Source: Synechococcus sp.
Lineage (GTDB): Bacteria; Cyanobacteriota; Cyanobacteriia; PCC-6307; Cyanobiaceae
Length of the DNA: 64,000 bases
Reading direction: 5' to 3'
Assembly: GCA_047284725.1 (NCBI GenBank)
Contig: JBJBEO010000001.1
Span: forward strand, 888,203 to 952,202
This document shows positions 15,447-60,025 of this stretch, one piece after another. Within the stretch, counting starts at the first letter, position 1, and every line of letters starts with the position of its first letter. A program made the translations under genes and the position numbers. Below the pieces are notes generated by a model. That model had not been told where the DNA came from. It saw only the letters and a program-made list of their open reading frames with translations, and ran no database searches.

Positions 15447-15682
15447 TGGTTCTGACTTCAAGTCGTCAAGCTTGCTACGGTTCCAGGCATAGAAAGAGTG
15501 CCAAATCTGTAAAACTCGTAAAAGGGGCATGCCAGTCTGGTCAACAAAGTTACAATTGAACGGTAAAGTGTCGTTTTTGGCCTGCGAATGAAGCAATGCT
15601 TGCGCAAGAGTTTTATTTTGCGACGCACTTCTCATCTCGTTACGGTTTGCAAGATCATCCTCAGCTACGAAACTCATCCTTG

Positions 15683-16753: not shown

Positions 16754-16756
16754 ATC

Positions 16757-17737
16757 ATGCATTCTTTCATAGGTCCTGAATCCTCAGTTGGTCCGAGATT
16801 TAATCCAACACGTCTGAAACATTTATTTCACTACGACGATTATGTTGAAGTGACTATGCACTTCAAGTGCAATCTGAAGTGCGTTCATTGCATGATAGAA
16901 AATACTATGGATTGGCTAGAGCCTGAAGGCCTGACTCGTCTCGAAGAAGTATGTGCCTATAACGACCAATATCGACGCTGGAGGGGAATTATCTTTACTG
17001 GTTCAGAAGTCACTCTTAATGCAGACTTGCCAAAGTGGGTAAATATGGCACGTCATCATGGTTTCGAGCGAGTGCGGATCCAGACCAACGGTATTCGATT
17101 GTCTGACTACGCATATTGCCGAGAGTTAATTGATGGCGGTGTCAATGAATTCTTCATAAGTGTCACAGCGGCCGATGCCGAAACCCATGATTCGATTACG
17201 AAAGTCAAGGGGTCGTTTGAAAAGACAATTCGTGGTTTGCATAATCTCGATTCATTCAATGATGTTGTCTCGATCACAAATACTGTCGTTACCACTCTCT
17301 CCTTCACACACTTGCCAATACTTGTGCGAGAACTTGGACACCTGAAGAACCTGGCTCGTATGGACTTCTGGAATTTCTGGCCGATGAATGAAAATGACGA
17401 CAAGGATCTGATTGCTTCTCATCTGGATGTCTTGCCATGCCTTCGAGACGCCATCGCAGAGGCACACAAGCTCGGTCGAGCCGTCGAAGTTAAGAACTTT
17501 CCCGAATGTTTGCTTGCTGATGATGGTCAATCATTAGATAATGGACAGCCAAAGCTTGTGATTGATCCAGCCTTCTGGCCTGAGTTTATGCGTAATGGAT
17601 TCAATCAGTGTGTCTTTCGTGACCAGTGTGGTTCTGTTAAATGTCTAGGTTTGAATACCGCTTATGTGAAGAAGTACGGATGGCACGAAGATGTTTTGGT
17701 GCCATTGCCTGTTCTGGAGTCCTTCGACAATGCATGA
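16757..17737 (+). CDS. Radical SAM enzyme, HxsC-like, with C-terminal Cys cluster
   Basis: CNLKCVHC (CxxxCxxC), FTGSEVT, IQTNG, NFPEC, CVFRDQCGSVKCLG. Confidence 0.85.
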   Translation: MHSFIGPESSVGPRFNPTRLKHLFHYDDYVEVTMHFKCNLKCVHCMIENTMDWLEPEGLTRLEEVCAYNDQYRRWRGIIFTGSEVTLNADLPKWVNMARHHGFERVRIQTNGIRLSDYAYCRELIDGGVNEFFISVTAADAETHDSITKVKGSFEKTIRGLHNLDSFNDVVSITNTVVTTLSFTHLPILVRELGHLKNLARMDFWNFWPMNENDDKDLIASHLDVLPCLRDAIAEAHKLGRAVEVKNFPECLLADDGQSLDNGQPKLVIDPAFWPEFMRNGFNQCVFRDQCGSVKCLGLNTAYVKKYGWHEDVLVPLPVLESFDNA

Positions 17738-18923
17738 ATCCTCTTCGATAAATGCTGATGCCGTTCGGATCTTTATTGAAGCAGACGGCATTGTGCTTGA
17801 GCTCGGGCACAAAGTAACCCCAGATGGAAGTGAATCTGATGTGATTAAAGGCCTATCTCGTATAAAGCTCACTCCACAGACCTTTCGTCGTTTTGGACTG
17901 GCATTGCATGATGCAATAAGTCTGTTGCCCAAAGAGTCTGTTCTTCGTTCTGGATCGATTCCGACTCCAACGCCACAACGCTCTTCCGCTGCAAAAGCCT
18001 CGCTGGAAGAGTTGCTTGATCCCACCATCAACCTTTCCTCATCCTCAGCGCCGACACCGATTTCAAGCCAGGATGCACAGCGGGTGTTCAAGCTGATTGC
18101 CAGTCTCGGTGCACCTTATGTCCATGAGCGCTCTTTTCGGTTCCGTGAAGGAGAGTTATTGCCCAATCGATTCCTGCTGACTGTTGGACGCTCAGGCAAC
18201 GGCAGCACTTCCGATGATGCTTTGATGGACCTATTCACTAACCTTTCCCTTCCTGCACCATTCCTCGAAGCTGCCCGCCAGCACATTTCGGCGGCCCGCT
18301 GTATACATGTTGGCTTTGAGGGAGACGGCGACAGTCCGCTGCTGAAGGTCTATTTGGAGATTGGAGGTCCTGACCAAATTAATCAGTCAACGCCTGATGC
18401 CGCAGTCCTTGAGCACATTGCGTACAAGTGGGACGTAAGAAACAGGGAACGACGAACCGTTGCTCGTTACTGGTGGTATCCATACCTAAATGCCAGTGAA
18501 TTGAAGAAACGAGTTGTTGAATTGTATGCAGATCATGATTTAGAGGCTCAGGATATTGCCCTTGGTGCCATTGAAATGGCAGCGCAAAAGATGCCTGAAC
18601 GTGACATTCACTACCTTGAGGTCGAAGAAGAGGGCAACCCAAGGCGTTCTTACTCGATCAATTTTTATGATGCGGGACTTCAGGTCCGGGATTTGCATAC
18701 ATTGCTGGCACGCATGAGAAACTATTTTGATGTATCGCCAGGGAAGTTTCAGATGCTCTATGACCAGATTAAGACAAGGCGTTTGGGACACATCGCTGGA
18801 GGAATTCACCGCAATGGAAAAGGCTTTTTTAATGTCTACTATGGTCCTCAGTTCATGGATTACGATTGTCAGGGCCATTGGCGCAGTGCTGTGTTTAGGG
18901 GCAAAGACAACTGCGATTTCTGA
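17730..18923 (+). CDS. DUF3467-like domain fused to a PatF/LynF-like (ABBA) prenyltransferase-type domain
   Basis: ATG overlaps the rSAM stop by 8 bp; N-terminal ~65 aa align to the DUF3467 at 20488; HERSFRFREGELLPNRFLL, VGFEG..LLKVYLE, FFNVYY. Confidence 0.6.
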   Translation: MHESSSINADAVRIFIEADGIVLELGHKVTPDGSESDVIKGLSRIKLTPQTFRRFGLALHDAISLLPKESVLRSGSIPTPTPQRSSAAKASLEELLDPTINLSSSSAPTPISSQDAQRVFKLIASLGAPYVHERSFRFREGELLPNRFLLTVGRSGNGSTSDDALMDLFTNLSLPAPFLEAARQHISAARCIHVGFEGDGDSPLLKVYLEIGGPDQINQSTPDAAVLEHIAYKWDVRNRERRTVARYWWYPYLNASELKKRVVELYADHDLEAQDIALGAIEMAAQKMPERDIHYLEVEEEGNPRRSYSINFYDAGLQVRDLHTLLARMRNYFDVSPGKFQMLYDQIKTRRLGHIAGGIHRNGKGFFNVYYGPQFMDYDCQGHWRSAVFRGKDNCDF

Positions 18924-18925
18924 CT

Positions 18926-19795
18926 ATGCATATCAACGACCGCTTCGAATATATCACTGAGAAAGATTTATATCATAATTATTGCCTCTGGCCCTACCTG
19001 CCAGTTACTGCTTCCATCGACAAGTTTCGCTCTATCAATCTTCTCTATCACGCTTTTGACGTTGCAGAAATCGATCACCGTATTTTTGATTTTGTCGAGG
19101 CGATACGTGATGGCATTGGCAGCTTCCGCACGGTGTGGGGAACTAAACTCATTAACAATAATTTGGCATGGGAATTTTACTTCTATGACTATGGGAGGCG
19201 TGTACGCGAGCTTTCGATCAGCAGGTTGATCAAGATTTTGGCGCCATTCACGCACTGCTCCGTTTCAGTCAACGAAAATATCAATTATTTTATGTTTTCG
19301 TTTGATGTCGATCAAGAGCTGATTACAGGTGCTCGTCAGCTTGATATTGTTCACATGTATCTCGGTAATGCTGGAAGCACTGTCTCCTCAGGAATTTCCT
19401 ACGCCCTGAGCCAGCAGTCATCCCGCCTCGAGAATCTGTATTACTTCTTCGAAGTGCCGTCCATGTTGCAACAGGTGATGGACAAGGTTGGTGACTCGGC
19501 CTACGTCGATGAAGCAGCGATTCCTATGGATTTTTTGGTGTGGCCGGAGCTTCGATCATGCACCACTATCTGTGTGGCCAACAAACAGAGCAATGACACA
19601 ATTTACTTTTCTGGGTGCACTGTAGATCAGCTTTTGTACTTTCTGATTCGGATTGGGTATCCAAGTAAGATCATTGACTTTGTGCAGTCTAATCGCAATA
19701 ATCTTGACCATCTTCTTTACGACGTGGGTTATGATTACCGCACGAAGGGTGATAAGGTTGAGATCGTCAAGAGTGGCTATTACGGGATATTTTGA
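18926..19795 (+). CDS. Hypothetical aromatic-rich protein, possible ABBA/PT-barrel fold
   Basis: 289 aa; starts 2 bp after the previous stop; five apparent beta-hairpins separated by helices; fold is inference. Confidence 0.6.
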   Translation: MHINDRFEYITEKDLYHNYCLWPYLPVTASIDKFRSINLLYHAFDVAEIDHRIFDFVEAIRDGIGSFRTVWGTKLINNNLAWEFYFYDYGRRVRELSISRLIKILAPFTHCSVSVNENINYFMFSFDVDQELITGARQLDIVHMYLGNAGSTVSSGISYALSQQSSRLENLYYFFEVPSMLQQVMDKVGDSAYVDEAAIPMDFLVWPELRSCTTICVANKQSNDTIYFSGCTVDQLLYFLIRIGYPSKIIDFVQSNRNNLDHLLYDVGYDYRTKGDKVEIVKSGYYGIF

Positions 19796-20418
19796 ATCAA
19801 TCCTATTCGACAAGAATAGTCGTGGCTGTTTCTGCACCGGTTGGTGGTGGTAAAACCTCTCTGGTGCGTGGTCTGGCGCAGGCTATGGATGGTGTTCCTT
19901 TTCATTTCGATCACTACGAAGACCTGACTCAATTGCCGCTTGAAGAAGTGAAGGCATGGCTCCATTTCGGTGCCGAGATTGCAGACCTTTCGATTCCCGC
20001 ACTGACGGATGACCTGATGGATCTGAAGCATGCCAGCTCACCGGCCGTACCCGCCAGTGGAGTGGCCATTCAAACCGCTCAATTTGTCTTTTTTGAGACC
20101 CCGTTTGCCCGGTGCCACCTTGAGTTAGATAATCTCATTGACTTAGCGATCTGGATTGACACACCTCTCGACGTCGCTTTGGCCCGCAACATACGGGAGT
20201 TCATGCGGCAACCTGAGTTGAGATCGAAATTGTCTGCGTGGCTTCCTGACTACCTTGATGGCTATCTCGACGCAGTGCGTGACATGCTGTTGATGCAGCA
20301 GGAGACTGTTGGTCGTGCAGCAGATATCACCCTTGATGGGACAGCCGATCTAGCGACAAACTTATCCATCGCAGAAAGAGAGATACGCAGGCTTCTGAAA
20401 AACAGATCATGCGACTGA
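19792..20418 (+). CDS. P-loop kinase, uridine/nucleoside-kinase-like
   Basis: VVAVSAPVGGGKTSL Walker A, FDHY, WIDTPLDVALAR, ADITLDG; TTG start overlaps previous TGA. Confidence 0.75.
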   Translation: MNQSYSTRIVVAVSAPVGGGKTSLVRGLAQAMDGVPFHFDHYEDLTQLPLEEVKAWLHFGAEIADLSIPALTDDLMDLKHASSPAVPASGVAIQTAQFVFFETPFARCHLELDNLIDLAIWIDTPLDVALARNIREFMRQPELRSKLSAWLPDYLDGYLDAVRDMLLMQQETVGRAADITLDGTADLATNLSIAEREIRRLLKNRSCD

Positions 20419-20781: not shown

Positions 20782-21253
20782 GAGAAGTTAATGGTAGTAA
20801 TAATCACTTCCGGCGAAAGAGGCCTAACAATGGATCCAAGAGCTCCTGCCCCCAGCCGAGAACGTGAAGCCTCCTTCTTGCCTCTGGGGCCGTAGGAATG
20901 TGATTTTTAATTCTCGCCTCTTTTAACGTGTTATCTGGACTCCTCCTGTCAGAGGTGACCTCGGCAGTAGTCAGTGTTGAAGTTTCCAGCTCAACATCTT
21001 GAACATCGATCGTGTCAAGGAGTCTGCGCTGCTCTGCGCTGAGTCGACGCTTCTGCTCCCAAATTGCAATCGCAGCAGCGCGTGTGTTCTCCAGAATCTG
21101 TGGCTGGATGTTTGGCAGCGATTTGCTCCCGTCCCCAGATTCAGTTAGCCTGTCTGCATCAGGATTCACGCTGGCGATGAGGTTTTCCTCATGCATCTCA
21201 GGCAGATGGCGCACACCAGCTTCCAGCATCTGTTCCATGAGCCCCTTCTCCTC

Positions 21254-21286
21254 ATGGGATATACCGATAAGGTGTCCGATCTCGTG
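21254..21286 (-). other. Metzincin-type zinc motif HEIGHLIGISH near the giant protein C-terminus
   Basis: HExxHxxGxxH followed by GLM (possible Met-turn); preceded by DAAGHGWFID. Confidence 0.8.
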
Positions 21287-21714
21287 GAGCTGCACAGTTA
21301 AGAGATCCATTTGGTCGTAGGCGGACGATTCACTTGCCGCAACATAGAAGCCTTCGTCAATTTCTTCGAACTCCTCATTGACATTAGGAGTTGCATCAAT
21401 GAACCAGCCATGACCGGCCGCATCGAAATCGAGCGTGATGGTGTTGCCCTCAGCTGTTGCAAGGATGGAACCTTCAAGATCGTCCACACGTAGATCCACC
21501 GAATCAAGGAAGGTGAGTTGGGATTCAGATAGCTGGGCGGACTGATCCCAAAGATCGATGGCTGTTGAGAAGGTGCTGTAAAGCAGCTTGCGGTCCACCT
21601 CATATAGTCCTTCGCTGTTGGTTTCTGCTCCGGTAACTCCTGCTCTCGAGTCGGGGGTACCACCGGCAAGAATGTTTTCGGAGTCTTGATGGGCCAAGTT
21701 GGGAGTATTCGTTC

Positions 21715-23049: not shown

Positions 23050-25870
23050 AGCTGTTGTACTCGCCGACCCAGTCAATCAGACGGTCGCCACCTGTATTGG
23101 CGATGAGCACATCCATCCCCGCGCCACCGAAGGCTCGATCCTCCCAGAAAGGATGGGTCTCCGGCTGGTCGTTGAGCTCACCGTTGGTGCCCAAGACATC
23201 GTCGGCGTTGAGCACGTCATTGCCCCAGCCACCGTAGATGCTGTCAGTTCCCGTACCTCCGACCAGCCAATCGTTGCCAAGGTCACCAAAAAGTACGTCA
23301 GCGCCATCGTCGAATGCGGTTCCGTACTCCAGATGTTGCTGTAATTTCGCACCTGTGTCTTTGTCGTCGAAGTTCAGGAACCACTCGAAGCCGTCGGTGG
23401 TTTTGTTGAGCGAGCCGTCAACGTTAAGCTCGATCTTGCGCAGTGGATCGAACTCGTCGTAAACCGCGAACTCTCCGTCGCGCTCACTTGAAAAGCGCAG
23501 TGCGTCCCCTGGGTTGAACGGTCTTGCCCAGTCGCTGCGCTGGATGGTGATGATGCCGTTGCCATCGTCGACCTGCGTGTAAGCCAGGGTCAGCGCCTCG
23601 GCTCCCGACATCGCGTCATCACCCGAGCCGCCGTGCAGGAAGTCGGCCTGAAGGCCGCCGAAGATGATGTCGTTGTAATTGTCCGAGGCGTCCCAGAGCT
23701 GATTGTCGAAGCCTTGGGTGATCGGGTTCACGTTGAACGGCGTCAGGTTGACGCTCTTCTTCAGCGCACCGGACACGTTGATCGTAGCCTGTTGCGCCTG
23801 GCCCGGCGTAGAAATTTCGAGGTCGAGGTTGCCCGCATCGATGGCGTCGATGCCGAAGAACGACTCGCCCGTCGAGGCATTGCGGCTGGTGTAGATACGT
23901 CCGTCATCACCGATCACGCCGTCCTGGCCAGTGCCACCGGAGATCCAGTCGTTGCCGTAGCCACCGATCAGGTCGTCGTCGTCGGCATCACCGAAAAGCA
24001 CGTCGTTGCCGACCATGCCGTAGATGAAGTCGTCACCCGACTCACCGTGGATCTCGTCGCCGGCGCCGATGTCGCTCTCCTGGCTGGCAGGGTCGTGATC
24101 GATGCCGCCCTGGGTGTAGTCGACCAGGTCGACGGCGCGAACGACGATGCGCTCGCTGCCGCGATTCTCGGAACTCGAGGACTGGTCGTAGGTAAACGCG
24201 AGCATCGCACCGCTGGAGTCGACCAGGCGGTAGATATTGGCGTTGTCACCGGCGATGGCATCGGAGTCGCGCCCGTGGCGTTCCTCGAACACCAGGTCGA
24301 CCGCCTGATCCTCGACGGTGTACTCGTTGCGATTGATGCGCGTCGCCGCGCCGCCGAAGATCAGGTCCGCCGCGTCCGGACGATCCGTCGGATCGACCAA
24401 GCCGAACAGAATCGAGCTGCCGCCGATGATGTCGTCCTGGCCAAGGTTGCCGAAGATGACATCGGAGCCGCCGTTGCCCTCGATGTAGTCGTCACCGTCG
24501 TCGACGCCCTCTATCGAGGCGTTGACTACCAGCAGACCGTCACTGTCGCGGTACGCACCGACCGTCGTCTGGGCGACGTTGCCGGCGTCGAGTTCGATGA
24601 ACGAGTCACCCTGTATGGTGTCGTCACCGAGCTGACCGAAGATTTCGTCATCGTCAGCGCCACCCGCGATGTAGTCGTCACCGAAGCTGCCGGCGAACGG
24701 AGTATCGGAGTGGTCGAGCAGGACGATGTCGCGTGCCGTATCTCCGCTCGGGTCGAGCTCCGCCGCACCGGCGATCAGCGCCTTTCCGTCGGTGCCACCG
24801 ACGATGTCCTCGCCGTAGATGGTGCTGCCCTGCAGCTGGCGGAAGCGTTTGCGCAACGAATCGCCGCGACGAACGATGGTCGCGTTGTCACCGGCGATGG
24901 CGTCGTTTCCGGCGCCGCCGTCGATGAAGTCGCCCGCGTCCTGGCCATTGGCGACGTTGTGCCCCCCGATGATGTCATCATCGCCGTTGTTGCCGAAGAT
25001 TGTGTCGCTACCCTGCTGACCAAGGATAATGTCGTCGCCGGCATCGCCGGTGATGAAGTCCGCGTCGCCGAGCAGGTCGTCGAGAGGGAACCACACGCTG
25101 CTTCCGAGAGTTTCGGTCTCGATGGCGGTGAAGGTGAATGGCGGAGTCATCGTCGCTTGCGGCAGGGACGCCGGATCCAGCACACCTCCGAGCGTCTGCT
25201 CGATGCGGCCGTTGTCGCCGAAGATGAGGTCCTCACCGTCGTTACCCGAGATGGTGTCGCGACCGGCGCCACCGAGGACGATGTCATTGCCCTCGTCACC
25301 GGCAATTCTGTCGTCGTCGGGACGTGTGATGAACGTCTGAATACGATCGACCGCGGCGTCGGCGTCAAGAGCTAGGTCCATGGTGCCGTGATCGCCGAAG
25401 ATCAGGTCGTTGCCGGTGTTGCCGTGGATGTCATCACCGCCGGTCCCACCAAAGATCAGGTCGTCGCCGGCATCACCGAAGATGAAGTCGCCCGCGCCGT
25501 TGTCGGGGATGGTGCTGGTGATGAAAGTCACCTGCTCCGTTGTGCGGATGCGCTCCGTACCCGGCTGCAGGTCGATACGACCGTGGTCGCCGAAGATGAT
25601 GTCGCCATCATCTCCGCCGTGGATGGTGTCCGAACCGGTCGCCATGTCGTCGCGGCTACGCGAGTCGGCTGTGTCGACGTCGACTACGCTCAGCCACAGC
25701 GTGGTGCCGTCGCGGTGCGGCAGGTCAACGTTGAAGCCGGAGTCGCCGTAAATGTGGTCGGTGCCTTTCTGGCCGAAGATCTCGTCGTTACCGGAACCGC
25801 CGGCGATGTGGTCACCGTCCATGCTGCCGAAGATGGTGTCGTCGCCACCACCACCGAAGATGGTGATGCC
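23050..25870 (-). repeat. RTX-type Ca-binding nonapeptide cluster (GGxGxDxIxG)
   Basis: Many units such as GGGGDDTIFG, GGSGNDEIFG, GNTGNDLIFG, GGYGNDWISG, GGTGTDSIYG; a further degenerate cluster at ~28360-29500. Confidence 0.9.
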
Positions 25871-44846: not shown

Positions 44847-47800
44847 AGGGACGCCTCGACATCGGCGCGCACATCGTTCAGGACGACGATGCCGCCGATG
44901 GCGATCGAATCCGACCCGCTGACGTTGAGACCCTGGGGGATCAGCTGGCTCTCGGGCACTTCCTTCCAGTACCCCAGGTCGCTGTAATTCAACCGACTCA
45001 GATCGCTCGAGCCGGCTAAGCCGCTGGCCGGGTCGATCCCGTCGGCCCCCATGAATTCATAGACAGAGCCGGCACTGCCGCTGATCTCGACCCAGTCGAG
45101 GCTGCTGCCGTAGTCCAGGGTCACCAGATCGACAACCGTCGGGGGATCCTGCTCCTCGCCCACGTACTGATACACGCTGCCGACGGTGCCGTCGCCTGTG
45201 GCCTCCTCGGTCACCTCCACGACCATTCCGTCGATCAGGCCCTGCTCATTCGTGCTCAGACCCAGCTGCGGTGTCGTGCTGTGGGTCGGCACCGCGTAAT
45301 CATCGGCCAGCCGCACCCGATCACCGAACTCCAGGGTCACGCTGGTGGCGTCGGAGGTGTGGTCCACCTCGAGGAGATCATTGATGCTTTCCTGCAGCAC
45401 CGACGCGCCACCGTCATTGGTGGTGGTCGATGAGGAGACGATCTTGGTGTTGGAGTAAACGCCGGCGCTGTCGCTGGCGGTGATTGCGACGCTGCCACCA
45501 GCCTCCACCGCGGTGCTGACGGCATCTCCGCCATCGCTGTCCTCCACGTAGGCCCGCGTGGCGGTGCTGACCTTGTTGCTCGCCAGAATCGCACTGGTGC
45601 TCATGCCCATCGCACCGAACAGGGCCGAGGCTTCTGAGATCGCGGCGTTGGAGACGGTCGCGTTCAGCCCGGCATCGTTCACCGCGCTCACCGTCAGGTC
45701 GCCGCTGAGCTTGAGGGTGGAATCCTCGATCGCGGCGATCACCGTGGCCGGATCCTCACGGCCGATCAAGCTGTCGCCCACCAACGCATCAATGGCGTTG
45801 AAGAGCACGTTCTGCGACTGCCAGCCGATCGTGTTGAAGGCCAGCGTGACCCCGACCGCCGTATCCCCCGAGCTGGTCGAGCCCAAGATGGTGGCATCGA
45901 TGGCGGAGGTGTTCTCGGCCGTCACCGCAACAGCGCCGCCGATGGCGGTTGTGCCGTCACCGATCTCGCTGTCGGTGATGGTGGCCTCGGTCGTGCTCTG
46001 CACCAGGTTGGTGGCGATCGTGCCGTTGACCGCCAGGGAGGTGCCGGTGCCGTAGGCACTGCCACCGGAGGAGGACACCTCACTGAGGATCGTGGCGGCG
46101 ATCTGCGCATTGGAGAGCGCCGCGACTGTCAGATCACCGCCCGCCGCAACATCGGCGTTATCGATGAAGACGTCGACACGGCTTCTGACATCGTTGCGCA
46201 CGACCACACCGCCGATGGCCACCGAATCGGAGCCCGTCACATTGCCGACATTGGGGATGTAGTCGGCGGTGCTTTCGGTCACCTTGACCCAATCGCCGGA
46301 GGTCTCGTAATCAATCGTGCCCAGATCAATCTGGGCGGCTTGTGCCCCCTCGTAGCGGTAGATCCCGCCCTCATCTCCACCGTTGCTGTAACCGGGACCC
46401 ACCCGCACCCTGGTGGATTCGGCCGCACCCTGCCGGCTCCAGAACGTTGTGTCGTTGTAGTTCTGGCTGGCCAGATCCAGCGTGTCGTCAACAAGGTCAC
46501 CGTCACCGAGGTATTCATAGACCGCACCTTCCTCGCCGCTGATCTCCTGCCACAGTGTTGCGTCGGTGAAATCCTGCGCGGTGAGGTCGAGGGTTCCGCC
46601 CTGTCCGACGTATCGGTAATAGCCGCTGCCGACGCGCACGATGGTGGTGTCCTTCACCACGGTGGCACTCTCGGCACCGCTGTCGGTGGTGGTGTAGTCG
46701 GGGGTGATGGCCTCGAAATAGCCGTAGTCGACCTTGACCCGATCGCCGAGTGCGACCACGGTGCTGCCCTCACCGGTGCTGTGGTCGTAGCTGGGCAGCC
46801 CGACGAGCACGGACCCCGATTCGGTGGTGAAGTCGTACTGCCTGTCCAGGTTGGCCAGCGCGTCTTGCAGCAGGCTCACGCCGCCGTCATTGGTGGTCAC
46901 CGACACCGAGGTGATGTCGCTGCTGGAGAGGACGCCGGCCTCGTCGCTGGCCGTGACCGTCACATGGCCGAGCGCACTGACATCGCCCTGGGCGCCGCTG
47001 AAGGCGATGAAGGCATCCGCCGCGCTGCTCACCAGGTTGCTGGCCAGCACCCCGGAGGTGCTCATCCCCGTCGCCCCGAAGAGCGCCGACGCTGCACTGT
47101 CGGCCTGATTGGTGATGGTTGCGTCCAGCTGCGCCGCATTGCGTGCCGTCACGCTGATGTCAGCGGCGGCGGTGAGCTGGCTGTCGCGGCTGTAGGCCGT
47201 GACCTGCGCCGGTGCCTCCTGGCCGAGCACCGAATCACCGAGCAGGGCATCGAGCGTGTTGAACAGCAGGTTCTGGGGCTGCCAGCCGATCGTGTTGAAG
47301 GCGAGCGTGACCCCGACCGCCGTATCCCCCGAGGTGGTGGCACTCAGCACCGACGCGTCGATGGCGGAGGTGTTCTCGGCCTCCACCGCGATGGTGCCCG
47401 CCTCGGTGGTGCCGCCCGCTGCGTCCTGGGCTTCCACCGTGCTGTCGGTGATCCGCGCGCTCGCCGCACTCAACACCGTGTTGGTGGCGATGAGGCCGTT
47501 GATCGCCAGGGAGGTGCCGGTGCCGTAGGCGCTGCCGCCGGAGGAGGAGGCGGCGCTCTCTGCCGTGGCGGTGATGGCGGCGATCTCGCTGGCCTCGACC
47601 GTGACATGGCCGTCCCTGGCCAGGACGGTGGCGTCGTTGATGTAGGCATCGACGGTGCCGCGCACGTCGTTGCGCACCACCAGGCCGCCGATGCCGATCG
47701 AATCCGAACCGCTGACGTTCAGGCCACTGGGGATGATGTTGGTCTGATCGAGCGGCTTCCAGAGCCCATAGTCGCTGTAATCCTGGGCGCCGAGATCACG

Positions 47801-50800
47801 GGCCTGGCTCTCACCCATGTACTGGAAGATCTGACCTGCCGGATCGAAGGAGCTATCAACAACTTCGTTGAAGCTGTAGTCATCATCTACACGGACCCGA
47901 TCACCGAAGTTCAGCTCAGGCGTGCCTGACTGGCTGGTGAACTGATAGTCATCGAGCAGTGTCTGTGCCAGGCCATTGAGAATGCCGGCACCACCGTCAT
48001 TGCTCGTTGACGACGCCGACACCACCTGGCTTGTGGCCTCGATCGTCGCGCTGTCGGCCGCCGAGACCGCAATGCCGCCGGCCGCAACGTCCGTCGAGAG
48101 ATCCAGCCAGTTGGTCGTGTCGGTTGTGTAGTTCTGGCTGCCGGTGCTCAGATCCACCGACGACTGAAGATTCTCGCCCTGATATTGGTAGTAGTCACCG
48201 TTGAACCCGACAATGTCGTTCTGGTTCAGCTGGGTCGGTGTATCGCTGTCTGTATAAAGCGTGCTCCCCGGGAGCAGTGTGGGGCTGCTAGTGCCAATGT
48301 CGAGCCAATCATTGTTACTGGCATAGTTCTGTGCTGTGTTGCTCAGATCCAGCGACGACTCGATTGGCGCTGTGCCCTGATATTCATAGACATCGCCGGA
48401 ATCGAGGCGTACCCGATCCCCGATGTTCAAGGTCACCGGACCATCGCTCGGGGCGTAATCCCAGGCATGCCCGAGATGGGCATCCGTCGTGGTGCTGACC
48501 ATGTTGCCGGCCAGCACACCGGCGAAGCTCATGCCGGTGGCGCCAAAGAGGGCGGAAGCCGCCGAGGTGGCCTCGTTGCCGACCGTGGCGGTGATCGCCG
48601 CGCCGGTCTCGGCATTCACGGTGACGCTGCCCACCGCATCGACCGAGGTGTTGTCGATCAGCGCCAGCGTCTCGAAGGGATCCTCGCTGCCGATGCTGCT
48701 GCCGAGCAGCGTGTCGATCGCATTGAAGAGAACGTTCTGGGACTGCCAGCCGATCGTGTTGAAGGCCAGCGTCACCCCCACCGCGGTGTCGCCGCTGGAG
48801 GTGGCGCTCAGGTTGCTCGCCTCGATCGCAGCGGTGTTGAGCGCCGTGACCTCAAGATCGCCGCCCAGGGGGGTGAGGGTGCTGTCCTGGACAAGCGCAC
48901 GCGCTGATCCCAGCACGGTGTTGGTGGCGATCACGCCATTGACCGCCAGGGAGGTGCCGCTGCCGTAGGCACTGCCGCCGGAGGACGATACCGTCGCATC
49001 GGCCGTCGCCTGGATCGTGGCGTTCTCCGACGCGCTCACCACCACGTCATCACCGGCCTGCAGGGTGATGGAGTTCAGGGACGCCTCGACATCGGCGCGC
49101 ACATCGTTCAGGACGACGATGCCGCCGATGGCGATCGAATCCGACCCGCTGACGTTGAGACCCTGGGGGATCAGCTGGCTCTCGGGCACTTCCTTCCAGT
49201 ACCCCAGGTCGCTGTAATTCAACCGACTCAGATCGCTCGAGCCGGCTAAGCCGCTGGCCGGGTCGATCCCGTCGGCCCCCATGAATTCATAGACAGAGCC
49301 GGCACTGCCGCTGATCTCGACCCAGTCGAGGCTGCTGCCGTAGTCCAGGGTCACCAGATCGACAACCGTCGGGGGATCCTGCTCCTCGCCCACGTACTGA
49401 TACACGCTGCCGACGGTGCCGTCGCCTGTGGCCTCCTCGGTCACCTCCACGACCATTCCGTCGATCAGGCCCTGCTCATTCGTGCTCAGACCCAGCTGCG
49501 GTGTCGTGCTGTGGGTCGGCACCGCGTAATCATCGGCCAGCCGCACCCGATCACCGAACTCCAGGGTCACGCTGGTGGCGTCGGAGGTGTGGTCCACCTC
49601 GAGGAGATCATTGATGCTTTCCTGCAGCACCGACGCGCCACCGTCATTGGTGGTGGTCGATGAGGAGACGATCTTGGTGTTGGAGTAAACGCCGGCGCTG
49701 TCGCTGGCGGTGATTGCGACGCTGCCACCAGCCTCCACCGCGGTGCTGACGGCATCTCCGCCATCGCTGTCCTCCACGTAGGCCCGCGTGGCGGTGCTGA
49801 CCTTGTTGCTCGCCAGAATCGCACTGGTGCTCATGCCCATCGCACCGAACAGGGCCGAGGCTTCTGAGATCGCGGCGTTGGAGACGGTCGCGTTCAGCCC
49901 GGCATCGTTCACCGCGCTCACCGTCAGGTCGCCGCTGAGCTTGAGGGTGGAATCCTCGATCGCGGCGATCACCGTGGCCGGATCCTCACGGCCGATCAAG
50001 CTGTCGCCCACCAACGCATCAATGGCGTTGAAGAGCACGTTCTGCGACTGCCAGCCGATCGTGTTGAAGGCCAGCGTGACCCCGACCGCCGTATCCCCCG
50101 AGCTGGTCGAGCCCAAGATGGTGGCATCGATGGCGGAGGTGTTCTCGGCCGTCACCGCAACAGCGCCGCCGATGGCGGTTGTGCCGTCACCGATCTCGCT
50201 GTCGGTGATGGTGGCCTCGGTCGTGCTCTGCACCAGGTTGGTGGCGATCGTGCCGTTGACCGCCAGGGAGGTGCCGGTGCCGTAGGCACTGCCACCGGAG
50301 GAGGACACCTCACTGAGGATCGTGGCGGCGATCTGCGCATTGGAGAGCGCCGCGACTGTCAGATCACCGCCCGCCGCAACATCGGCGTTATCGATGAAGA
50401 CGTCGACACGGCTTCTGACATCGTTGCGCACGACCACACCGCCGATGGCCACCGAATCGGAGCCCGTCACATTGCCGACATTGGGGATGTAGTCGGCGGT
50501 GCTTTCGGTCACCTTGACCCAATCGCCGGAGGTCTCGTAATCAATCGTGCCCAGATCAATCTGGGCGGCTTGTGCCCCCTCGTAGCGGTAGATCCCGCCC
50601 TCATCTCCACCGTTGCTGTAACCGGGACCCACCCGCACCCTGGTGGATTCGGCCGCACCCTGCCGGCTCCAGAACGTTGTGTCGTTGTAGTTCTGGCTGG
50701 CCAGATCCAGCGTGTCGTCAACAAGGTCACCGTCACCGAGGTATTCATAGACCGCACCTTCCTCGCCGCTGATCTCCTGCCACAGTGTTGCGTCGGTGAA

Positions 50801-53800
50801 ATCCTGCGCGGTGAGGTCGAGGGTTCCGCCCTGTCCGACGTATCGGTAATAGCCGCTGCCGACGCGCACGATGGTGGTGTCCTTCACCACGGTGGCACTC
50901 TCGGCACCGCTGTCGGTGGTGGTGTAGTCGGGGGTGATGGCCTCGAAATAGCCGTAGTCGACCTTGACCCGATCGCCGAGTGCGACCACGGTGCTGCCCT
51001 CACCGGTGCTGTGGTCGTAGCTGGGCAGCCCGACGAGCACGGACCCCGATTCGGTGGTGAAGTCGTACTGCCTGTCCAGGTTGGCCAGCGCGTCTTGCAG
51101 CAGGCTCACGCCGCCGTCATTGGTGGTCACCGACACCGAGGTGATGTCGCTGCTGGAGAGGACGCCGGCCTCGTCGCTGGCCGTGACCGTCACATGGCCG
51201 AGCGCACTGACATCGCCCTGGGCGCCGCTGAAGGCGATGAAGGCATCCGCCGCGCTGCTCACCAGGTTGCTGGCCAGCACCCCGGAGGTGCTCATCCCCG
51301 TCGCCCCGAAGAGCGCCGACGCTGCACTGTCGGCCTGATTGGTGATGGTTGCGTCCAGCTGCGCCGCATTGCGTGCCGTCACGCTGATGTCAGCGGCGGC
51401 GGTGAGCTGGCTGTCGCGGCTGTAGGCCGTGACCTGCGCCGGTGCCTCCTGGCCGAGCACCGAATCACCGAGCAGGGCATCGAGCGTGTTGAACAGCAGG
51501 TTCTGGGGCTGCCAGCCGATCGTGTTGAAGGCGAGCGTGACCCCGACCGCCGTATCCCCCGAGGTGGTGGCACTCAGCACCGACGCGTCGATGGCGGAGG
51601 TGTTCTCGGCCTCCACCGCGATGGTGCCCGCCTCGGTGGTGCCGCCCGCTGCGTCCTGGGCTTCCACCGTGCTGTCGGTGATCCGCGCGCTCGCCGCACT
51701 CAACACCGTGTTGGTGGCGATGAGGCCGTTGATCGCCAGGGAGGTGCCGGTGCCGTAGGCGCTGCCGCCGGAGGAGGAGGCGGCGCTCTCTGCCGTGGCG
51801 GTGATGGCGGCGATCTCGCTGGCCTCGACCGTGACATGGCCGTCCCTGGCCAGGACGGTGGCGTCGTTGATGTAGGCATCGACGGTGCCGCGCACGTCGT
51901 TGCGCACCACCAGGCCGCCGATGCCGATCGAATCCGAACCGCTGACGTTCAGGCCACTGGGGATGATGTTGGTCTGATCGAGCGGCTTCCAGAGCCCATA
52001 GTCGCTGTAATCCTGGGCGCCGAGATCACGGGCCTGGCTCTCACCCATGTACTGGAAGATCTGACCTGCCGGATCGAAGGAGCTATCAACAACTTCGTTG
52101 AAGCTGTAGTCATCATCTACACGGACCCGATCACCGAAGTTCAGCTCAGGCGTGCCTGACTGGCTGGTGAACTGATAGTCATCGAGCAGTGTCTGTGCCA
52201 GGCCATTGAGAATGCCGGCACCACCGTCATTGCTCGTTGACGACGCCGACACCACCTGGCTTGTGGCCTCGATCGTCGCGCTGTCGGCCGCCGAGACCGC
52301 AATGCCGCCGGCCGCAACGTCCGTCGAGAGATCCAGCCAGTTGGTCGTGTCGGTTGTGTAGTTCTGGCTGCCGGTGCTCAGATCCACCGACGACTGAAGA
52401 TTCTCGCCCTGATATTGGTAGTAGTCACCGTTGAACCCGACAATGTCGTTCTGGTTCAGCTGGGTCGGTGTATCGCTGTCTGTATAAAGCGTGCTCCCCG
52501 GGAGCAGTGTGGGGCTGCTAGTGCCAATGTCGAGCCAATCATTGTTACTGGCATAGTTCTGTGCTGTGTTGCTCAGATCCAGCGACGACTCGATTGGCGC
52601 TGTGCCCTGATATTCATAGACATCGCCGGAATCGAGGCGTACCCGATCCCCGATGTTCAAGGTCACCGGACCATCGCTCGGGGCGTAATCCCAGGCATGC
52701 CCGAGATGGGCATCCGTCGTGGTGCTGACCATGTTGCCGGCCAGCACACCGGCGAAGCTCATGCCGGTGGCGCCAAAGAGGGCGGAAGCCGCCGAGGTGG
52801 CCTCGTTGCCGACCGTGGCGGTGATCGCCGCGCCGGTCTCGGCATTCACGGTGACGCTGCCCACCGCATCGACCGAGGTGTTGTCGATCAGCGCCAGCGT
52901 CTCGAAGGGATCCTCGCTGCCGATGCTGCTGCCGAGCAGCGTGTCGATCGCATTGAAGAGAACGTTCTGGGACTGCCAGCCGATCGTGTTGAAGGCCAGC
53001 GTCACCCCCACCGCGGTGTCGCCGCTGGAGGTGGCGCTCAGGTTGCTCGCCTCGATCGCAGCGGTGTTGAGCGCCGTGACCTCAAGATCGCCGCCCAGGG
53101 GGGTGAGGGTGCTGTCCTGGACAAGCGCACGCGCTGATCCCAGCACGGTGTTGGTGGCGATCACGCCATTGACCGCCAGGGAGGTGCCGCTGCCGTAGGC
53201 ACTGCCGCCGGAGGACGATACCGTCGCATCGGCCGTCGCCTGGATCGTGGCGTTCTCCGACGCGCTCACCACCACGTCATCACCGGCCTGCAGGGTGATG
53301 GAGTTCAGGGACGCCTCGACATCGGCGCGCACATCGTTCAGGACGACGATGCCGCCGATGGCGATCGAATCCGACCCGCTGACGTTGAGACCCTGGGGGA
53401 TCAGCTAGCTCTCGGGCACTTCCTTCCAGTACCCCAGGTCGCTGTAATTCAACCGACTCAGATCGCTCGAGCCGGCTAAGCCGCTGGCCGGGTCGATCCC
53501 GTCGGCCCCCATGAATTCATAGACAGAGCCGGCACTGCCGCTGATCTCGACCCAGTCGAGGCTGCTGCCGTAGTCCAGGGTCACCAGATCGACAACCGTC
53601 GGGGGATCCTGCTCCTCGCCCACGTACTGATACACGCTGCCGACGGTGCCGTCGCCTGTGGCCTCCTCGGTCACCTCCACGACCATTCCGTCGATCAGGC
53701 CCTGCTCATTCGTGCTCAGACCCAGCTGCGGTGTCGTGCTGTGGGTCGGCACCGCGTAATCATCGGCCAGCCGCACCCGATCACCGAACTCCAGGGTCAC

Positions 53801-53905
53801 GCTGGTGGCGTCGGAGGTGTGGTCCACCTCGAGGAGATCATTGATGCTTTCCTGCAGCACCGACGCGCCACCGTCATTGGTGGTGGTCGATGAGGAGACG
53901 ATCTT
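44847..53905. repeat. Near-perfect intragenic tandem repeat; period 4230 bp (1410 aa); ~2.14 copies
   Basis: Offset 4230 throughout (44941 = 49171 = 53401); duplicated ORF-track entries in several frames; identity ends at 44846/49076 and 53906/49676; only difference noticed is at 53407. Confidence 0.95.
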
Positions 53906-56551
53906 TGAATTTGAATAGATACCCGACTCATCCGTGGCACGGACTATGGCATTTCTGACAGCATTCACATCGGTCGTGATCGAGTCATCAGTGTCCTGAT
54001 CAGCGATATAGGCGAATGCACCACTATTGATCTTGTTGGATGCGAAAATCCCTCCAGAGCCAACGCTCGATGCGCCGAAGATGCTGTCGGCAGTGCTTGC
54101 GGCTGCATTACTGACCGTTGCGTTGAACTTGCTCTTGGCGTCGGCACTGAGCAGCACATCTTGTGCCGAGACGACGCTGGAGTCGATAATGTATGCGCTC
54201 ACGTCGGAGCGTTCGAAGCTTCCAGGGCCAGGGCCAAGAAGAGCATCGAGCGTCTGGATACCAGGCACGACGCGCCAGCCTATGGAGTTGAAGGCAACTG
54301 AGGCACCTAGGCTGAATCCGGTTCCGCCCAAGGAGATCTCGGGTGTTTGAGATGTCGCCGAAGCGCCCGATTTTGCGTCAACGCCTGATGTGTCCTCAGC
54401 CCTAACAAGTACATCGCCACTTGTCAGCGTTTTGATATCACTGTCGTTCTCAATGTAGGCAGTGGTACTGCCGATCAGTGTGTTGGAGGAATATGTTCCG
54501 CCGATGCTGATGCTTCCTGTGAAAGGTAGTGATGCAGCAACCGAAGTGGTTTTCGCTTGCGCACCCAACTGCGCTTGCTTGGTCGCTTCGATTGTGATAT
54601 CGGCACCGGTCGCCTCCAAGGCGGAATTGGTGATGAACGCTTCGACGTTCCGATCCAACAGATTCTGCGCCGATGCAACATTCACCGAGACCGGCAGGAC
54701 GACTGAATCGAGGTTGACGATCTGTTCCGGTGCTGCCGCCGTGAGCATCGCTAGATCGTTCGCGGCAACTGATACTCCGCCGGCTCCGGCATTCACCGAG
54801 CTTCCTTCGATCGAAGCCTTCACGTCACCATCGATCTCGTTCAGCGCAGAAACGGCAAAAGCGCTGTAGTTGGTTTGTGTGGTGGCGTCTATCGAAAGTC
54901 CACCTACATTGATGGTATTAGTGGAATTCTTGATTGATGCCACCGCGCTCTCGGTGAACCGATTCACAGTCGAAATCGTCGACGCTGAACGCACCTTGCC
55001 CTGGGTCGTTGCCGACAGAGAGAACGTTGTTGCCGTGATGCTGCCGCCATCAACGTGGACACTCGCGCTTGAATCCGCCGTGAGGTCAATGGGAAGAGGC
55101 GTGGAAATGTTGATGTCACGTTTCACCGTGGCACTAGCGGTCACATTGCCTGTGGCGTTGATGTCACCAGCGATGTTGATGCTGGCCTGAAGGTTGCTTA
55201 CATTGGCAGCATTGGTGATCTGGTTTGATTCTTCTGCGATCGCGTTAAAAAGTACGCTGCCCAGGCCCGATAGGCTGGCCCCAGTCGCCACATTGATTCT
55301 TTCTGCGTGGATCTCCAGGTTGTTCCCTTCGAGATCAACAGTTCCTGTGAGCACCACCGAGTCGGTGCCCGCGCCGCCGCGAATTGTTAGCTTGGCGTCA
55401 ATGTCAGCCGTTGCGATCTCGAGGACGTCGTCGGCGCCGCCGAGGTCGATGATCAGCTCGGTGGTCGGCTTGACGAAATAAATGGTCTCGATGGTGGGGC
55501 TGACGTCCGGGTCGTTGCGCAGCACCAGATCGCTGGTGTTGGTGCTGTCGTCCTCGAGAATCAACGTGTCAGCAAGCGCCGCCGCTGGAGCCACCGTCTG
55601 CGGATTTTCGTTGGATCCGGCGTTGCCGGCGCTGTTCGCCGCGATTAGATCCGCGTCGATGGTGAGCGTCGCCACCGCGCTGTTGAGCGTGATCGGCTCA
55701 AGACCTTCGTAGTTGACCGTCTGCCCGTCGAGCGTCACTGAACCAGAATGCGGGCCGGATGCCTCGAAGCCGACGTTTGTATAGCTTTCTCCAACGAACA
55801 CAAGGCTGTCGAAGCCACCGTCGCCACCGTCGATACCGCCGCTGATGGCTCCTTGTTGCTCAAAGACAAACGTGTCTTCGTTGTCCGTGCCACCGGTGAG
55901 TTTCTCAACACCAGAAAATTGCACCACTGTGTTCACGTTGCCCTGATTGAGGGCGGTGACTGTCCATAGGCTGTCCATGCCGGGGCCGAACAGGGTGTCC
56001 GTCCCCAGGCCACCATCGAAATGCAGGCTTCCCCCGACCGCACCGAGGGCATTGATCAGCTCAGAACTAACGGTTAAAGCGTCATCGCCCTCTCCCAGTG
56101 CAACCGTGACACCAGCGGCTGTCAGAGGTGCGAGAACGATGACCTCCCCTGCTTGAACCGTTGCTGTGAGCTCACCGGCGTCGTTGGCATCAAGGGCAAG
56201 CGCCTGGCCTAGAGAGTCACCAACCAGTGAAATCTCACCACTGAGATCGTCGATCAGCCAATTGATGCCACTGGATTGAAGCGACGAACTTTCCTGAGGC
56301 GGACTGCCACCGTCAATGATGGGATCATGGGGCGAATCACTCAGCAAGTTCTCAGATACCTCGCCTTCAATTTCGGCTTCGGGGGTATCAACGGCTACCA
56401 ATAATTCGCTGTCGATTGAGCCTGAGTCCAGGAGCGACTCGCCAAGCTGAGGCCCGGATGAGTCACTCTCCAGCGCCGCTTCCTCCTCAAGTCCAGGCAG
56501 TAAATAGCCTTCTTGGAGTGCTTCCAGGGAAGGATCTTGAGGCACAGCCAT

Positions 56552-56805
56552 GGCTGAACGAATCGCCTAATCCTTTACTCATAAAGGGGCCAGCTTTGGC
56601 ACGCAATGTCGCATCCGCTTTTAAGTGGGCATGCCTAAAATCAGTGTTTAATCGGATTCTCACCAGTCTTTAAGATTCAAGTTTTTTAGTTGAGCTATAA
56701 GCATTTTGAAGTCTTAATTTGTCGCTTCAAATATTAAAAAACCGTGAGCAAATGTTCAATAATTTCTCGCTTTTGTTATGACTCAAGGGCCTTATTTCTT
56801 TGGTG
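56552..56805. promoter_or_regulatory. AT-rich divergent promoter region between the giant gene and sapC
   Basis: Head-to-head genes; strongly AT-rich sequence at 56640-56800; individual boxes not assigned. Confidence 0.55.
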
Positions 56806-57561
56806 ATGGCTCCACAGCTGCTGTTTTACAACGATGTTGTTCCTCTGAATAAGGAGCGTCATCAGGGCTGGTCTCTTAAGCAGGTTGATGATTATTCGTT
56901 TGCAGACAAGGCCAACTCTGTCCCTCTGATGTCTGTTGAGTTCTTCCAGGCCTCCGCTGATTATCCAATTGTCTTTGCTGGCGACGAAGAAGTCGTTTCT
57001 CCCGTGCTGTTGCTCGGATTGCAGCAGGCTCAGAATTTATTCCTGCAAAGCAATGGGTCATGGAGTGGTGGTTACATACCCGCCTTTATCAGAAGGTATC
57101 CATTCGTATTTACTCGCTCTGATGACGGTGAGCAATACTATCTATGCATCGATGAGTCGCATCCAGGTTTCAATCAATACGGTGAAGGTGAGGCTTTGTT
57201 GAACGAAGATGGTAATCCTACGGACTTCACCGACAACATCCTCAAGTTTCTGAGTAGCTACCAATATGAGTTCCAGAGGACGCAGGCATTTTGCAAGAAG
57301 CTGAAGGAGCTCAATCTCCTGGAGGCAAAGCAAGCTGATATTTCCCTTCCGGATGGTACCAAGAAGTCCTTGAAAGGTTTTTATACTGTTGAGCGACAAC
57401 GCCTGGCATCACTGTCGTCTGAGTCCATCGTGGAGCTTGTTCGGTCGGGTTACTATGAGATGATTTGTAGCCATCTCGCTTCATTGCGTAACTTCAAGCT
57501 TCTCAGTGATCTCAGCAATGAGCGAGTTAGCGAAAGTGGGGAATTGCATGCTGTGGTGTAG
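56806..57561 (+). CDS. sapC: SapC family protein
   Basis: LFYNDVVPLNKERH, VPLMSVEF..AS.DYPIVF, LLGL....NLF....W...YIPAFIRRYPF, LCIDE, GFYTVE..RL, HLASL.NF. Confidence 0.9.
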   Translation: MAPQLLFYNDVVPLNKERHQGWSLKQVDDYSFADKANSVPLMSVEFFQASADYPIVFAGDEEVVSPVLLLGLQQAQNLFLQSNGSWSGGYIPAFIRRYPFVFTRSDDGEQYYLCIDESHPGFNQYGEGEALLNEDGNPTDFTDNILKFLSSYQYEFQRTQAFCKKLKELNLLEAKQADISLPDGTKKSLKGFYTVERQRLASLSSESIVELVRSGYYEMICSHLASLRNFKLLSDLSNERVSESGELHAVV

Positions 57562-58221
57562 TTGGTTGGTGCATGATGTCTTTGGTGTGAGGTGAATTTT
57601 TCGTGGCACTGCCTCTCAACGATGCAGTGCTCTTTTTTTGTTCTGTCGTTTCGCTTCTCTGACCATCTGCTGTGTGATTGGAATGCTCCCGGTTTCTCGC
57701 TTGGGCTCGTTGCTGGCCGTCAGGCCTCAGGCATCGGTAGGGCTTGACGTTGATGGCATTGGCTCTGTTGTCTGCTGATCGTCGTTTTCCCAAGCAATCG
57801 ACGAGAAGCTGGCGTGCTGAAGTGTCTGTGGCAGTCCTATTTGCAAGTCTGTGATTGGTGTCAATGCTTTCTGCAGACTTGCTGGCTTTGATGCGTCGTG
57901 GTTCTGGGTGGTGGTGGTTGCCTGGAGCTGTAGTCTTCGGCTTGTCTTGTAGAAGCTTGGCGTGAATGTGTGAAGTTGGCGGCGTTTGCCCCTGTGTCAA
58001 GCACTACACATTTTGGCTCTTGTTGATTGATGATGGAGGAGATCGCCGCCTGTGGGTTCTGGCTTGTCTGTTGATCTTTTGATCAAGCCTTGCTTCTCAA
58101 GATCGATCGTTCGCTTTGGTTGGAGTGCTCTTGTTCCACACTCTGAATTGCAGGCGCCTGATGTTGAGTGCTTTTCAGAGTTGTTGTCTGACGATCTCAT
58201 CAAGAGTTCGATCTCCAGGAT

Positions 58222-58908
58222 CTAGTTCAACATCAGGCCGCTGACTCCCTGCCAGCCGAGATAGCCGCCAAGGCCCAGGCTCACAGCGCTCACCACCAGT
58301 TCTCCACGTGTAAAGAGAAGCTCTTTGCCTTTCTCTAAAACCGGCAGCACTTTGTTGCGGCCAATCACCACCGCCAGCAACGGCACCATCAGCAGCAGGC
58401 TGGCTCCGGCAGTGAAGGTCACCAACCCCACCAGTTCCTGCCAGCGCGGTAGCTGGGCCGCCAGCACGATGCCAGCCGATTTGGCGAACAGCAGCAGATC
58501 GTCAGGGCTGGCCACTTCGGTGAGGGCGCCGAGGCCGACCAACAGCGGCAGCGGCATGGCCACGAAGCGATCGATGCTGCGCGTCCAGCCGGGAGGGTGG
58601 TTGCCATCGGTCAAGGCCCTCAGCAGTTCCTTCACGCCGATCGCGATCAAGGCTCCGCCAGCGACAAGATCCAGGCCCGTGCGATGGTCGGAGCCCTGGG
58701 TCATGTCAAGCACCAAGGTGTGCCCCACAGTGAGCAGCAGGCTGACCGTGGCCAGGGTGGTGATCACCCAGCCGGTCACAAACCAACCGCCGCGTTGCAG
58801 GGGATTGGGGCCCAACAGCAGCAGCAGCAACACTGCCAGATGAATCGGGGAGAGGCTGATGCCAGTGCCGTAGGCCAGCAGCTCAGCCCAGAGAGTGGTG
58901 TCGCTCAT
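58222..58908 (-). CDS. GAP family (Sap-like) membrane protein
   Basis: GISLSP..LAVLLLLL..P......F..GW pattern with about six TM helices; ATG at 58908. Confidence 0.7.
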   Translation of the reverse strand: MSDTTLWAELLAYGTGISLSPIHLAVLLLLLLGPNPLQRGGWFVTGWVITTLATVSLLLTVGHTLVLDMTQGSDHRTGLDLVAGGALIAIGVKELLRALTDGNHPPGWTRSIDRFVAMPLPLLVGLGALTEVASPDDLLLFAKSAGIVLAAQLPRWQELVGLVTFTAGASLLLMVPLLAVVIGRNKVLPVLEKGKELLFTRGELVVSAVSLGLGGYLGWQGVSGLMLN

Positions 58909-58964
58909 CGCACGGGGGTGGGTGGGGGTCTGAGATGAATGCTGATGATGCCTGGGCTCTGTGT

Positions 58965-59561
58965 TCAGGGCCTGAACCAGGCGCCTGCAGGGGCATTCCA
59001 CCGCTTCACCACCCGGAGATGGTGTTCATGGCCGAGGACGCAGATCGAACCGGTGTCAAGGCGGAACAGCCTTCCCCCGTCCGCGCCGATGCCAAGCCAG
59101 GTGCCTGCGAGGGCTCGCAGCAGGTGGCCATGGGCAAACAACGCCACAGCACCCGCGTTCTGAATCGCCATGGCGTTGTCAATCACCGCGCAGCATCGCT
59201 TCTGCACAGTCGCGGCATCCTCACCCCCCGGGCAGCCGTGGCTCCAGATCGACCAATCCGGAACCGATTGCTGGATCTGAGGCGTGGTGAGACCCTCATA
59301 GTGGCCATAGTTCCATTCCCTCAACTCCTCAAGCAGCACAGCCTGTTGGCCAAGTCCTGCAAGCTCGCAGGTGCGTCGTGCTCGGTTCAGCGGTGAGCAA
59401 AAGACGGCTGCAAACGGCACCTGTTTCAGGACCGGTTGGAGCTCCTGGGCTTCCTGCTCACCCTCCGGGAGCAAGGGCAGATCCGTGCTGCCGGTGTGGC
59501 GTCCGTTGAGAGCCCATGCCGTGGCACCGTGCCGTAGCAACCACAGCTGACGTTCTTGCAC
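58965..59561 (-). CDS. Histidine phosphatase (phosphoglycerate mutase-like)
   Basis: LLRHGAT, SPLNRARRT, EWNYG.YEG, FAHGHLLR. Confidence 0.9.
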   Translation of the reverse strand: MQERQLWLLRHGATAWALNGRHTGSTDLPLLPEGEQEAQELQPVLKQVPFAAVFCSPLNRARRTCELAGLGQQAVLLEELREWNYGHYEGLTTPQIQQSVPDWSIWSHGCPGGEDAATVQKRCCAVIDNAMAIQNAGAVALFAHGHLLRALAGTWLGIGADGGRLFRLDTGSICVLGHEHHLRVVKRWNAPAGAWFRP

Positions 59562-59572
59562 AGATTGCAGCG

Positions 59573-60025
59573 CTAGGTGTGCTTGATTTCAAACCAGTCT
59601 TCGCCTGTGGTCGGTAACTGGCTCAGTCGCACCATGTGAACCTTGCTGCCGACGGGGCCCCGTTCACACCACATCCTCAGTTCGTTCAAAGCGAAGCTGC
59701 TGCCTTCCGCCTGCACTTCCACTTTTCCATCACTGAGGTTTTTCACCCAGCCACAAAGACCCAGTTCGGTGGCCCGTTGCAGGCAGGCGTTGCGGAACCC
59801 GACACCCTGCACATCTCCGATCACCATCAGTCTCCAGCGCTCGGGGTGCAGCTGCGGTTTGGCTTTCTGTCGGCTGAGGAAGCGGCCCCGGTCCTGATGG
59901 CTGCGGCTTCGACTGCGCCGCGCCATCGGCATGAGATCGTCGAGCATCCTCCCCAGTGGAGGTGGACCCAGCTGGCGTGAAGACTTGGATGACTCCATCC
60001 TTCCCTCCGTCGGGGAATGTGCCAC
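59573..60025 (-). CDS. Acylphosphatase (start uncertain; overlaps cobB 3' end)
   Basis: IGDVQGVGFR, GWVKNLSDGKVEV, GP..S.V..V. Confidence 0.8.
   Translation of the reverse strand: MAHSPTEGRMESSKSSRQLGPPPLGRMLDDLMPMARRSRSRSHQDRGRFLSRQKAKPQLHPERWRLMVIGDVQGVGFRNACLQRATELGLCGWVKNLSDGKVEVQAEGSSFALNELRMWCERGPVGSKVHMVRLSQLPTTGEDWFEIKHT

Follow-up and report, generated by a model that had tools for sequence, protein, structure and literature searches.

A single in-frame stop inside a near-perfect repeat of a giant, island-borne Synechococcus gene: probably a recent nonsense lesion with passive, one-way revertibility

The window, by which we mean the whole 64,000-nt stretch of DNA analyzed here, comes from a genome that we take to be that of a marine Synechococcus, assembled as one 2.58-Mb contig with 59% G+C and a cyanobacterial set of genes, and contains a giant gene of about 36 kb that takes up 1.4% of that genome. 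The gene occupies 20804-56551 on the minus strand as one frame of 11,915 codons, whose sole internal stop is a TAG at codon 1049 (53405-53407; coding strand 53407-53405). It is held by a genomic island of about 44 kb (14418-58230), the flanks of which adjoin in relatives: the island is missing at this site in all 29 well-assembled genomes of the genus, where the flanks lie at most 5.3 kb apart and, in 20 of the 29, within 0.3 kb of each other. A protein search of 45 other genomes of the genus returned no homologue of the giant protein, a DNA search of 60 found only a 32-base match in one of them, and the giant gene is accessory. A plus-strand cassette of five genes (15596-20418; methyltransferase, radical SAM, two unknowns and a kinase) converges on its 3' end, while the left edge of the island holds a small M10-type metallopeptidase gene (14652-15203), the family of which is that of the C-terminal motif in the giant protein. 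On the other side, a SapC-family gene (56800-57561, plus strand; PF07277, E 2e-75) is divergent from the giant gene and is a possible export or assembly helper. There is no exporter gene within the island; two HlyD genes scoring over the cut-off adjoin two other giant genes elsewhere in the genome (G000:C1:1084694-1099039 and 816141-825716). Both of these giant genes have an HlyD gene nearby and a perfect array of their own, one of 657 bp x 16 with no mismatch, the other of 489 bp x 14 with one N.

Read with an X at the break, the protein has a mass of about 1.22 MDa and, judged from its domains, is likely to be a secreted surface filament protein. The LktA_tand_53 model (NF012206, cut-off 50 bits) was passed in three consecutive pieces with 57.8, 106.8 and 319.6 bits. 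There are eight RTX calcium-binding stretches, the best of which (PF00353, 118.8 bits; 23210-23311, minus strand) marks the likely type I export region and lies downstream of the stop, and a Peptidase_M10-like stretch with the motif HExxHxxGxxH was found at 21221-21592 on the minus strand (PF00413, 27.1 bits, cut-off 24). The C-terminal calcium-binding nonapeptide repeats would fit a type I-secreted RTX-repeat protein, and export is predicted on this ground. Assignment as an RTX pore-forming hemolysin (NF033943) was rejected, as the match reached 75.6 bits against a cut-off of 1000 and covered calcium-binding repeats only. Likewise, the protein was not assigned to the LEPR-XLL domain proteins (NF012209), since its first 100 residues gave no match at E values up to 10 while three of three relatives did match, and the motif was not found in the frames upstream of the giant gene either. 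It is present in 47 of the 64 relatives with a closed 5' end; at the start of the giant gene (56252-56551) an acidic low-complexity leader stands where most relatives have a basic leader followed by the LEPR-XLL motif. The string LEALQEGYLLP in the giant gene may be what is left of that motif after decay. The same start is matched at about 95% identity by an environmental contig (X3). Third-position G+C is uneven along 20804-56551, rising from 0.65 in the 5' part to 0.82-0.84 within the repeat block and falling to 0.59 directly behind it, and this patchiness suggests that the gene is a mosaic of segments from different donors. The family as a whole is widespread, with relatives in many phyla and homologues named LEPR-XLL or DUF4347 proteins; the closest matches lie outside the cyanobacteria, for instance in Labrenzia alba (69% over 230 aa).

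The TAG separates an upstream piece of 1,048 aa (53408-56551, minus strand), comprising the acidic leader without the LEPR-XLL motif and LktA-type repeats with no RTX export region, from a downstream open frame of 10,866 codons (20804-53404, minus strand; 10,842 aa from a GTG at 53332), which carries LktA-type repeats, the RTX calcium-binding repeats and the M10-like metalloprotease motif. In the annotation, these two halves of a single gene appear as separate products of 1,048 aa and 10,842 aa.

The stop is located in a near-perfect repeat of the order A-B-A-B-A, in which A measures 599 bp and B 3,631 bp. Along the minus strand the copies are A1 at 53307-53905 (residues 883-1082, where 498 bp separate the 5' end from the stop), B1 at 49676-53306, A2 at 49077-49675, B2 at 45446-49076, which is identical to B1, and A3 at 44847-45445. 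At an offset of 4230, 4,828 of 4,829 positions agree over 49077-53905, the lone mismatch being 53407; at an offset of 8460 the match extends over 599 positions, again with a single mismatch at 53407. Direct comparison of the copies gave TCAGCTAGCT at 53401 and TCAGCTGGCT at both 49171 and 44941, and the equivalent codon is CAG (Gln) in A2 and A3. The preliminary description had reported an A in place of G at 53407 as the only difference among the copies, a product cut at 1,048 aa and 498 bp of identity ahead of the stop, all of which is confirmed; after the stop the identity continues for 4,330 bases at the shorter offset and 100 at the longer. The stop corresponds to a C-to-T change, that is, a C:G-to-T:A transition, and such transitions are the commonest class of spontaneous mutation. 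The change also creates an 8-base palindrome (AGCTAGCT), the arms of which are too short for a template-switch hotspot to be argued. A promoter and terminator scan of 52000-57000 revealed no excess over chance and nothing on the coding strand. Since the repeat span makes up 25% of the giant gene, the position of the stop inside it needs no explanation. Among 100 related loci near-perfect internal repeats were seen in one, an undercount because short-read contigs break at such repeats. In Labrenzia alba (L009, L011, L051), the closest relative, the assembly falls apart into small contigs within this module block, and 221 identical bases common to two of its contigs are a hint of near-perfect repeats in that genome as well.

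In the relatives the frame continues over the site. A query of 421 residues spanning the break produced 555 alignments over it, from 96 of the 100 related loci, many of the weaker ones loose, and none of these aligned module copies, all of them from distant relatives, has a stop in the column of codon 1049; the closest relatives (L009, L011 and L096) have Gln there within the same WKEV.E.Q.IPQG context. A natural split into two genes was rejected on this basis. Programmed read-through or amber recoding was rejected as well, because the stop is not conserved, no tRNA with a CUA anticodon occurs among the 50 tRNA and tmRNA genes of the genome, and no Rfam element was found in 52500-58500. Together, the relatives without a stop at the column and the lack of an amber tRNA or recoding RNA indicate that the TAG is no natural gene boundary. 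Broken copies do occur within the family: 10 of the 100 related loci are split over frames (3 of those with N), and two loci, L015 and L104, have in-frame TAGs at sites other than codon 1049. These TAGs replace different residues, and L015 is frameshifted in addition and looks decayed or poorly assembled, so that amber recoding within the family was discarded too. Both decayed copies are environment-derived records, and since broken family copies are not rare, loss of the protein need not be confined to culture.

If the stop is real, it might still be leaky or bypassed, with read-through or a restart at a downstream GTG or ATG giving a product that retains the C-terminal RTX region and is released rather than anchored; we regard this as improbable. 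Every export-related part lies downstream of the stop, 18 in-frame start codons occur between residues 1074 and 1434, and the two distant HlyD genes could act in trans, so that a restart could yield an exportable product of 10,800 aa. Moreover, the genome has no Rho over the cut-off; Rho polarity is therefore not expected, and the long transcript may still be made. However, TAG-C is an ordinary terminator in this genome (38 of the 155 ORFs that end in TAG, out of 1,785 called), neither a suppressor tRNA nor a structured recoding RNA was found, the GTG at 53332 lies in the middle of a module, 72 bases beyond the stop, and the relatives run through the site without interruption. The preliminary description had noted that this GTG has no evident ribosome binding site. 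No SD-like word was indeed found there, but the observation is weak evidence against a restart, since the true start of the gene also has no clear SD at normal spacing.

A more serious alternative, which we consider possible but clearly the weaker one, is that the A at 53407 was introduced by base calling or finishing, or belongs to a minor allele that was assigned to the wrong copy, and that the gene is intact, the number of B units perhaps being an estimate as well. The site lies in a 599-bp repeat present in three copies, 498 bp from unique sequence, in a genome with several long arrays whose copies are 100% identical, as would be expected if they had been filled from a consensus, and another repeat array of the assembly contains an N. 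In marine Synechococcus, short-read finishing breaks down at the repeats of giant genes or has to be completed there by manual reconstruction (PMC4559175, PMC7522525): one published genome-closing pipeline reconstructed swmB manually from estimated copy numbers (PMC4559175) and left its last gaps in repeat genes (PMC7522525). In addition, the only contig from which the truncated protein is recorded is that of the present assembly. The genome also shows three rRNA operons (G000:C1:268467-281327, 1964983-1971177), two of them in tandem with a period of 6,678 bp, 100% identity over 6,183 bp and a unique spacer of 495 bp, which represents either a duplication or a finishing artefact; two operons are the usual number for the group, with one example in PMC4559175.

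Several observations speak against an error. Filling from a consensus would give G in all copies, and a lone difference requires reads that show it. A random substitution in the repeat span was computed to create a stop in 2.0-2.8% of cases, which favors a real, selected loss over an error, although this figure is prone to ascertainment, as a silent difference would have gone unflagged. Finally, a control of 450 orthologue pairs against a second genome (G027; 127,088 aligned residues) contained no clear internal stop or frameshift. This control used a frame model and drew on 800 kb of the 2.66 Mb of G027; rows judged by eye to reflect pre-start extensions or wrong-frame ORFs were excluded, namely 24 stop rows in 17 ORFs, of which 22 fell within aligned residues 1-72 and two where the alignment was poor, and five frameshift-like rows, located in pre-start extensions. 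Being made of core genes, it covers no repeats and bounds substitution errors weakly, at an estimated rate of roughly <2e-4 per base.

Environmental data bear on the gene more than on the base. Seven sequencing runs share words with the sequence, none of them from the strain itself and none an RNA run, with a best share of 0.27. When environmental contigs from four of the seven runs were compared with 49700-60000, exact or near-exact pieces of B were found in X1, X2 and X4, which implies that the gene exists nearly unchanged in nature. The joint between B and A is present in X1 and X2, a joint that would arise in the same way from a single B unit as from two. Coverage of B exceeded that of the unique 5' part in X1, X2 and X4, where contig depth is no measure of copy number. 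One X1 contig matches 53183-53424 with three other letters and ends 17 bases past the stop. Among the 40 listed of 273 wild differences, 20 fall in the gene, 9 synonymous and 11 non-synonymous with no stop (P about 0.06 against 27% expected for these 20 listed). In metagenome scans the 5' query had no match and the B query found distant relatives only. Taken together, a rough weighing makes a real change about twice as probable as an error.

The reading that we favor as the probable one is therefore a real and very recent C-to-T nonsense lesion that is passively revertible in one direction, and not an evolved on/off switch. The duplication of 4,230 bp shows no other difference between its copies, and the TAG is the only lesion in 35.7 kb, which indicates that the stop is very young. 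It is probably younger than the duplication: an older stop would be expected in the middle A for about 498 of 598 A-to-A crossover positions, and it is not there. As a mechanism, the TAG would halt production of the full-length 1.2-MDa filament protein, and the 1,048-aa piece would probably not be exported, as the RTX region lies downstream of the stop. The stop would probably have persisted because cells in culture can do without so costly a protein, and selection there may have fixed it. Recombination with the downstream copies could then remove the stop once, and nothing would restore it. Of the possibilities raised in the preliminary description, culture-selected loss and sequencing error have remained the two leading ones, while a designed OFF state has found no support.

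The geometry proposed for reversion is nevertheless sound. Either downstream copy could serve as partner in a crossover or gene conversion that takes out the stop in frame, and the lengths predicted for the two deletion products are correct (11,915-1,410 = 10,505 and 11,915-2,820 = 9,095 aa). Perfect homology of 498 bp is ample for homologous recombination, and with an intact recA in the genome a real sequence should give rise to stop-free products, though at a low rate. If crossovers scale with the length of homology, about 10% of one-unit deletions (498/4,828) would remove the stop and about 90% would shorten the gene yet retain it, while the reciprocal products, or conversion in the opposite direction, would spread the stop among the copies. 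A revertant produced by deletion or conversion holds no stop-bearing copy, so that a return to OFF needs a new mutation and there is no toggling. One-way reversion of this kind is a side effect of any perfect intragenic repeat and is not phase variation.

It could still be supposed that the OFF state evolved to be unlocked by recombination, the repeat being maintained as a means of erasing a stop in the first copy whenever the protein is favored by grazers or phage. The in-frame route over 498 bp with an intact recA would permit this, environmental runs from several studies contain near-identical pieces of the gene, and giant Synechococcus proteins have been linked to grazing defence (PMC4949707). 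Nevertheless, we consider such an evolved state very improbable, and the revertible or bet-hedging system suggested earlier does not hold: the position is unremarkable given the share of the gene that is repeat, the stop recurs in none of the 555 aligned modules of distant relatives, most one-unit crossovers keep the stop (498 against 4,330 bp) and their reciprocals multiply it, no stop template is left after reversion, and near-perfect internal repeats are nearly absent from the related loci, with the undercount mentioned above. No repeat tract, recombinase site or silent cassette that could provide both states was seen at the stop site. It is similarly far-fetched that the stop is a wild polymorphism in the first of three identical repeats, with conversion among copies, chromosomes and incoming DNA moving a coat protein between OFF, full-length and shortened ON states without a dedicated recombinase. 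No description of a stop-in-repeat switch was found in the part of the literature that was searched.

As it stands, the finding matters little, being one isolated nonsense change, or an error, in a giant but accessory gene, and only if the same stop segregates in wild populations would it amount to a new kind of switch. As a practical warning under the favored reading of a recent lesion, the strain in culture probably fails to produce the largest of its proteins. Provided that the base is real, this locus lends itself to following rates of repeat recombination in a marine picocyanobacterium, and could also report whether grazers or phage select for the giant protein.

Giant, strain-specific, island-borne proteins are known from marine Synechococcus, where they have been linked to motility and grazing defence (PMC2441476, PMC4949707). 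SwmB (10,791 aa) and other 'giant ORFs' resemble the present gene in exceeding 10,000 residues and in being strain-specific, located in an island, repeat-rich and likely exported (PMC2441476, PMC4949707), and further in that their repeats trouble genome finishing (PMC4559175, PMC7522525). In contrast to SwmB, the gene described here belongs to another family, with LktA-type repeats and RTX, has no export genes beside it and carries a stop. The likeness to the LEPR-XLL/LktA_tand_53 filamentous proteins (NF012209, NF012206) consists in the three pieces over the NF012206 cut-off, while the acidic leader takes the place of the LEPR-XLL motif borne by most of these relatives. The nearest true switch is that of Mycoplasma gallisepticum hemadsorption, which, according to a study said to date from 2003, is reportedly governed by a reversible point mutation, a nonsense change in gapA. 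The two cases are alike in that a single base change decides whether an adhesin is on or off; in Mycoplasma, switching was reportedly measured both ways, whereas the recombination route predicted here is one-way. In its effect the lesion resembles premature stops that are confined to single isolates and hit accessory genes for surface or motility functions. Recent isolate-specific stops of this sort are described in flaR and inlA of Listeria, for which reversibility was proposed as a hypothesis (PMC2532693). Unlike those, the present stop was found in a single genome, that of a non-pathogenic marine host, and is located in a perfect intragenic repeat that offers a template for its repair.
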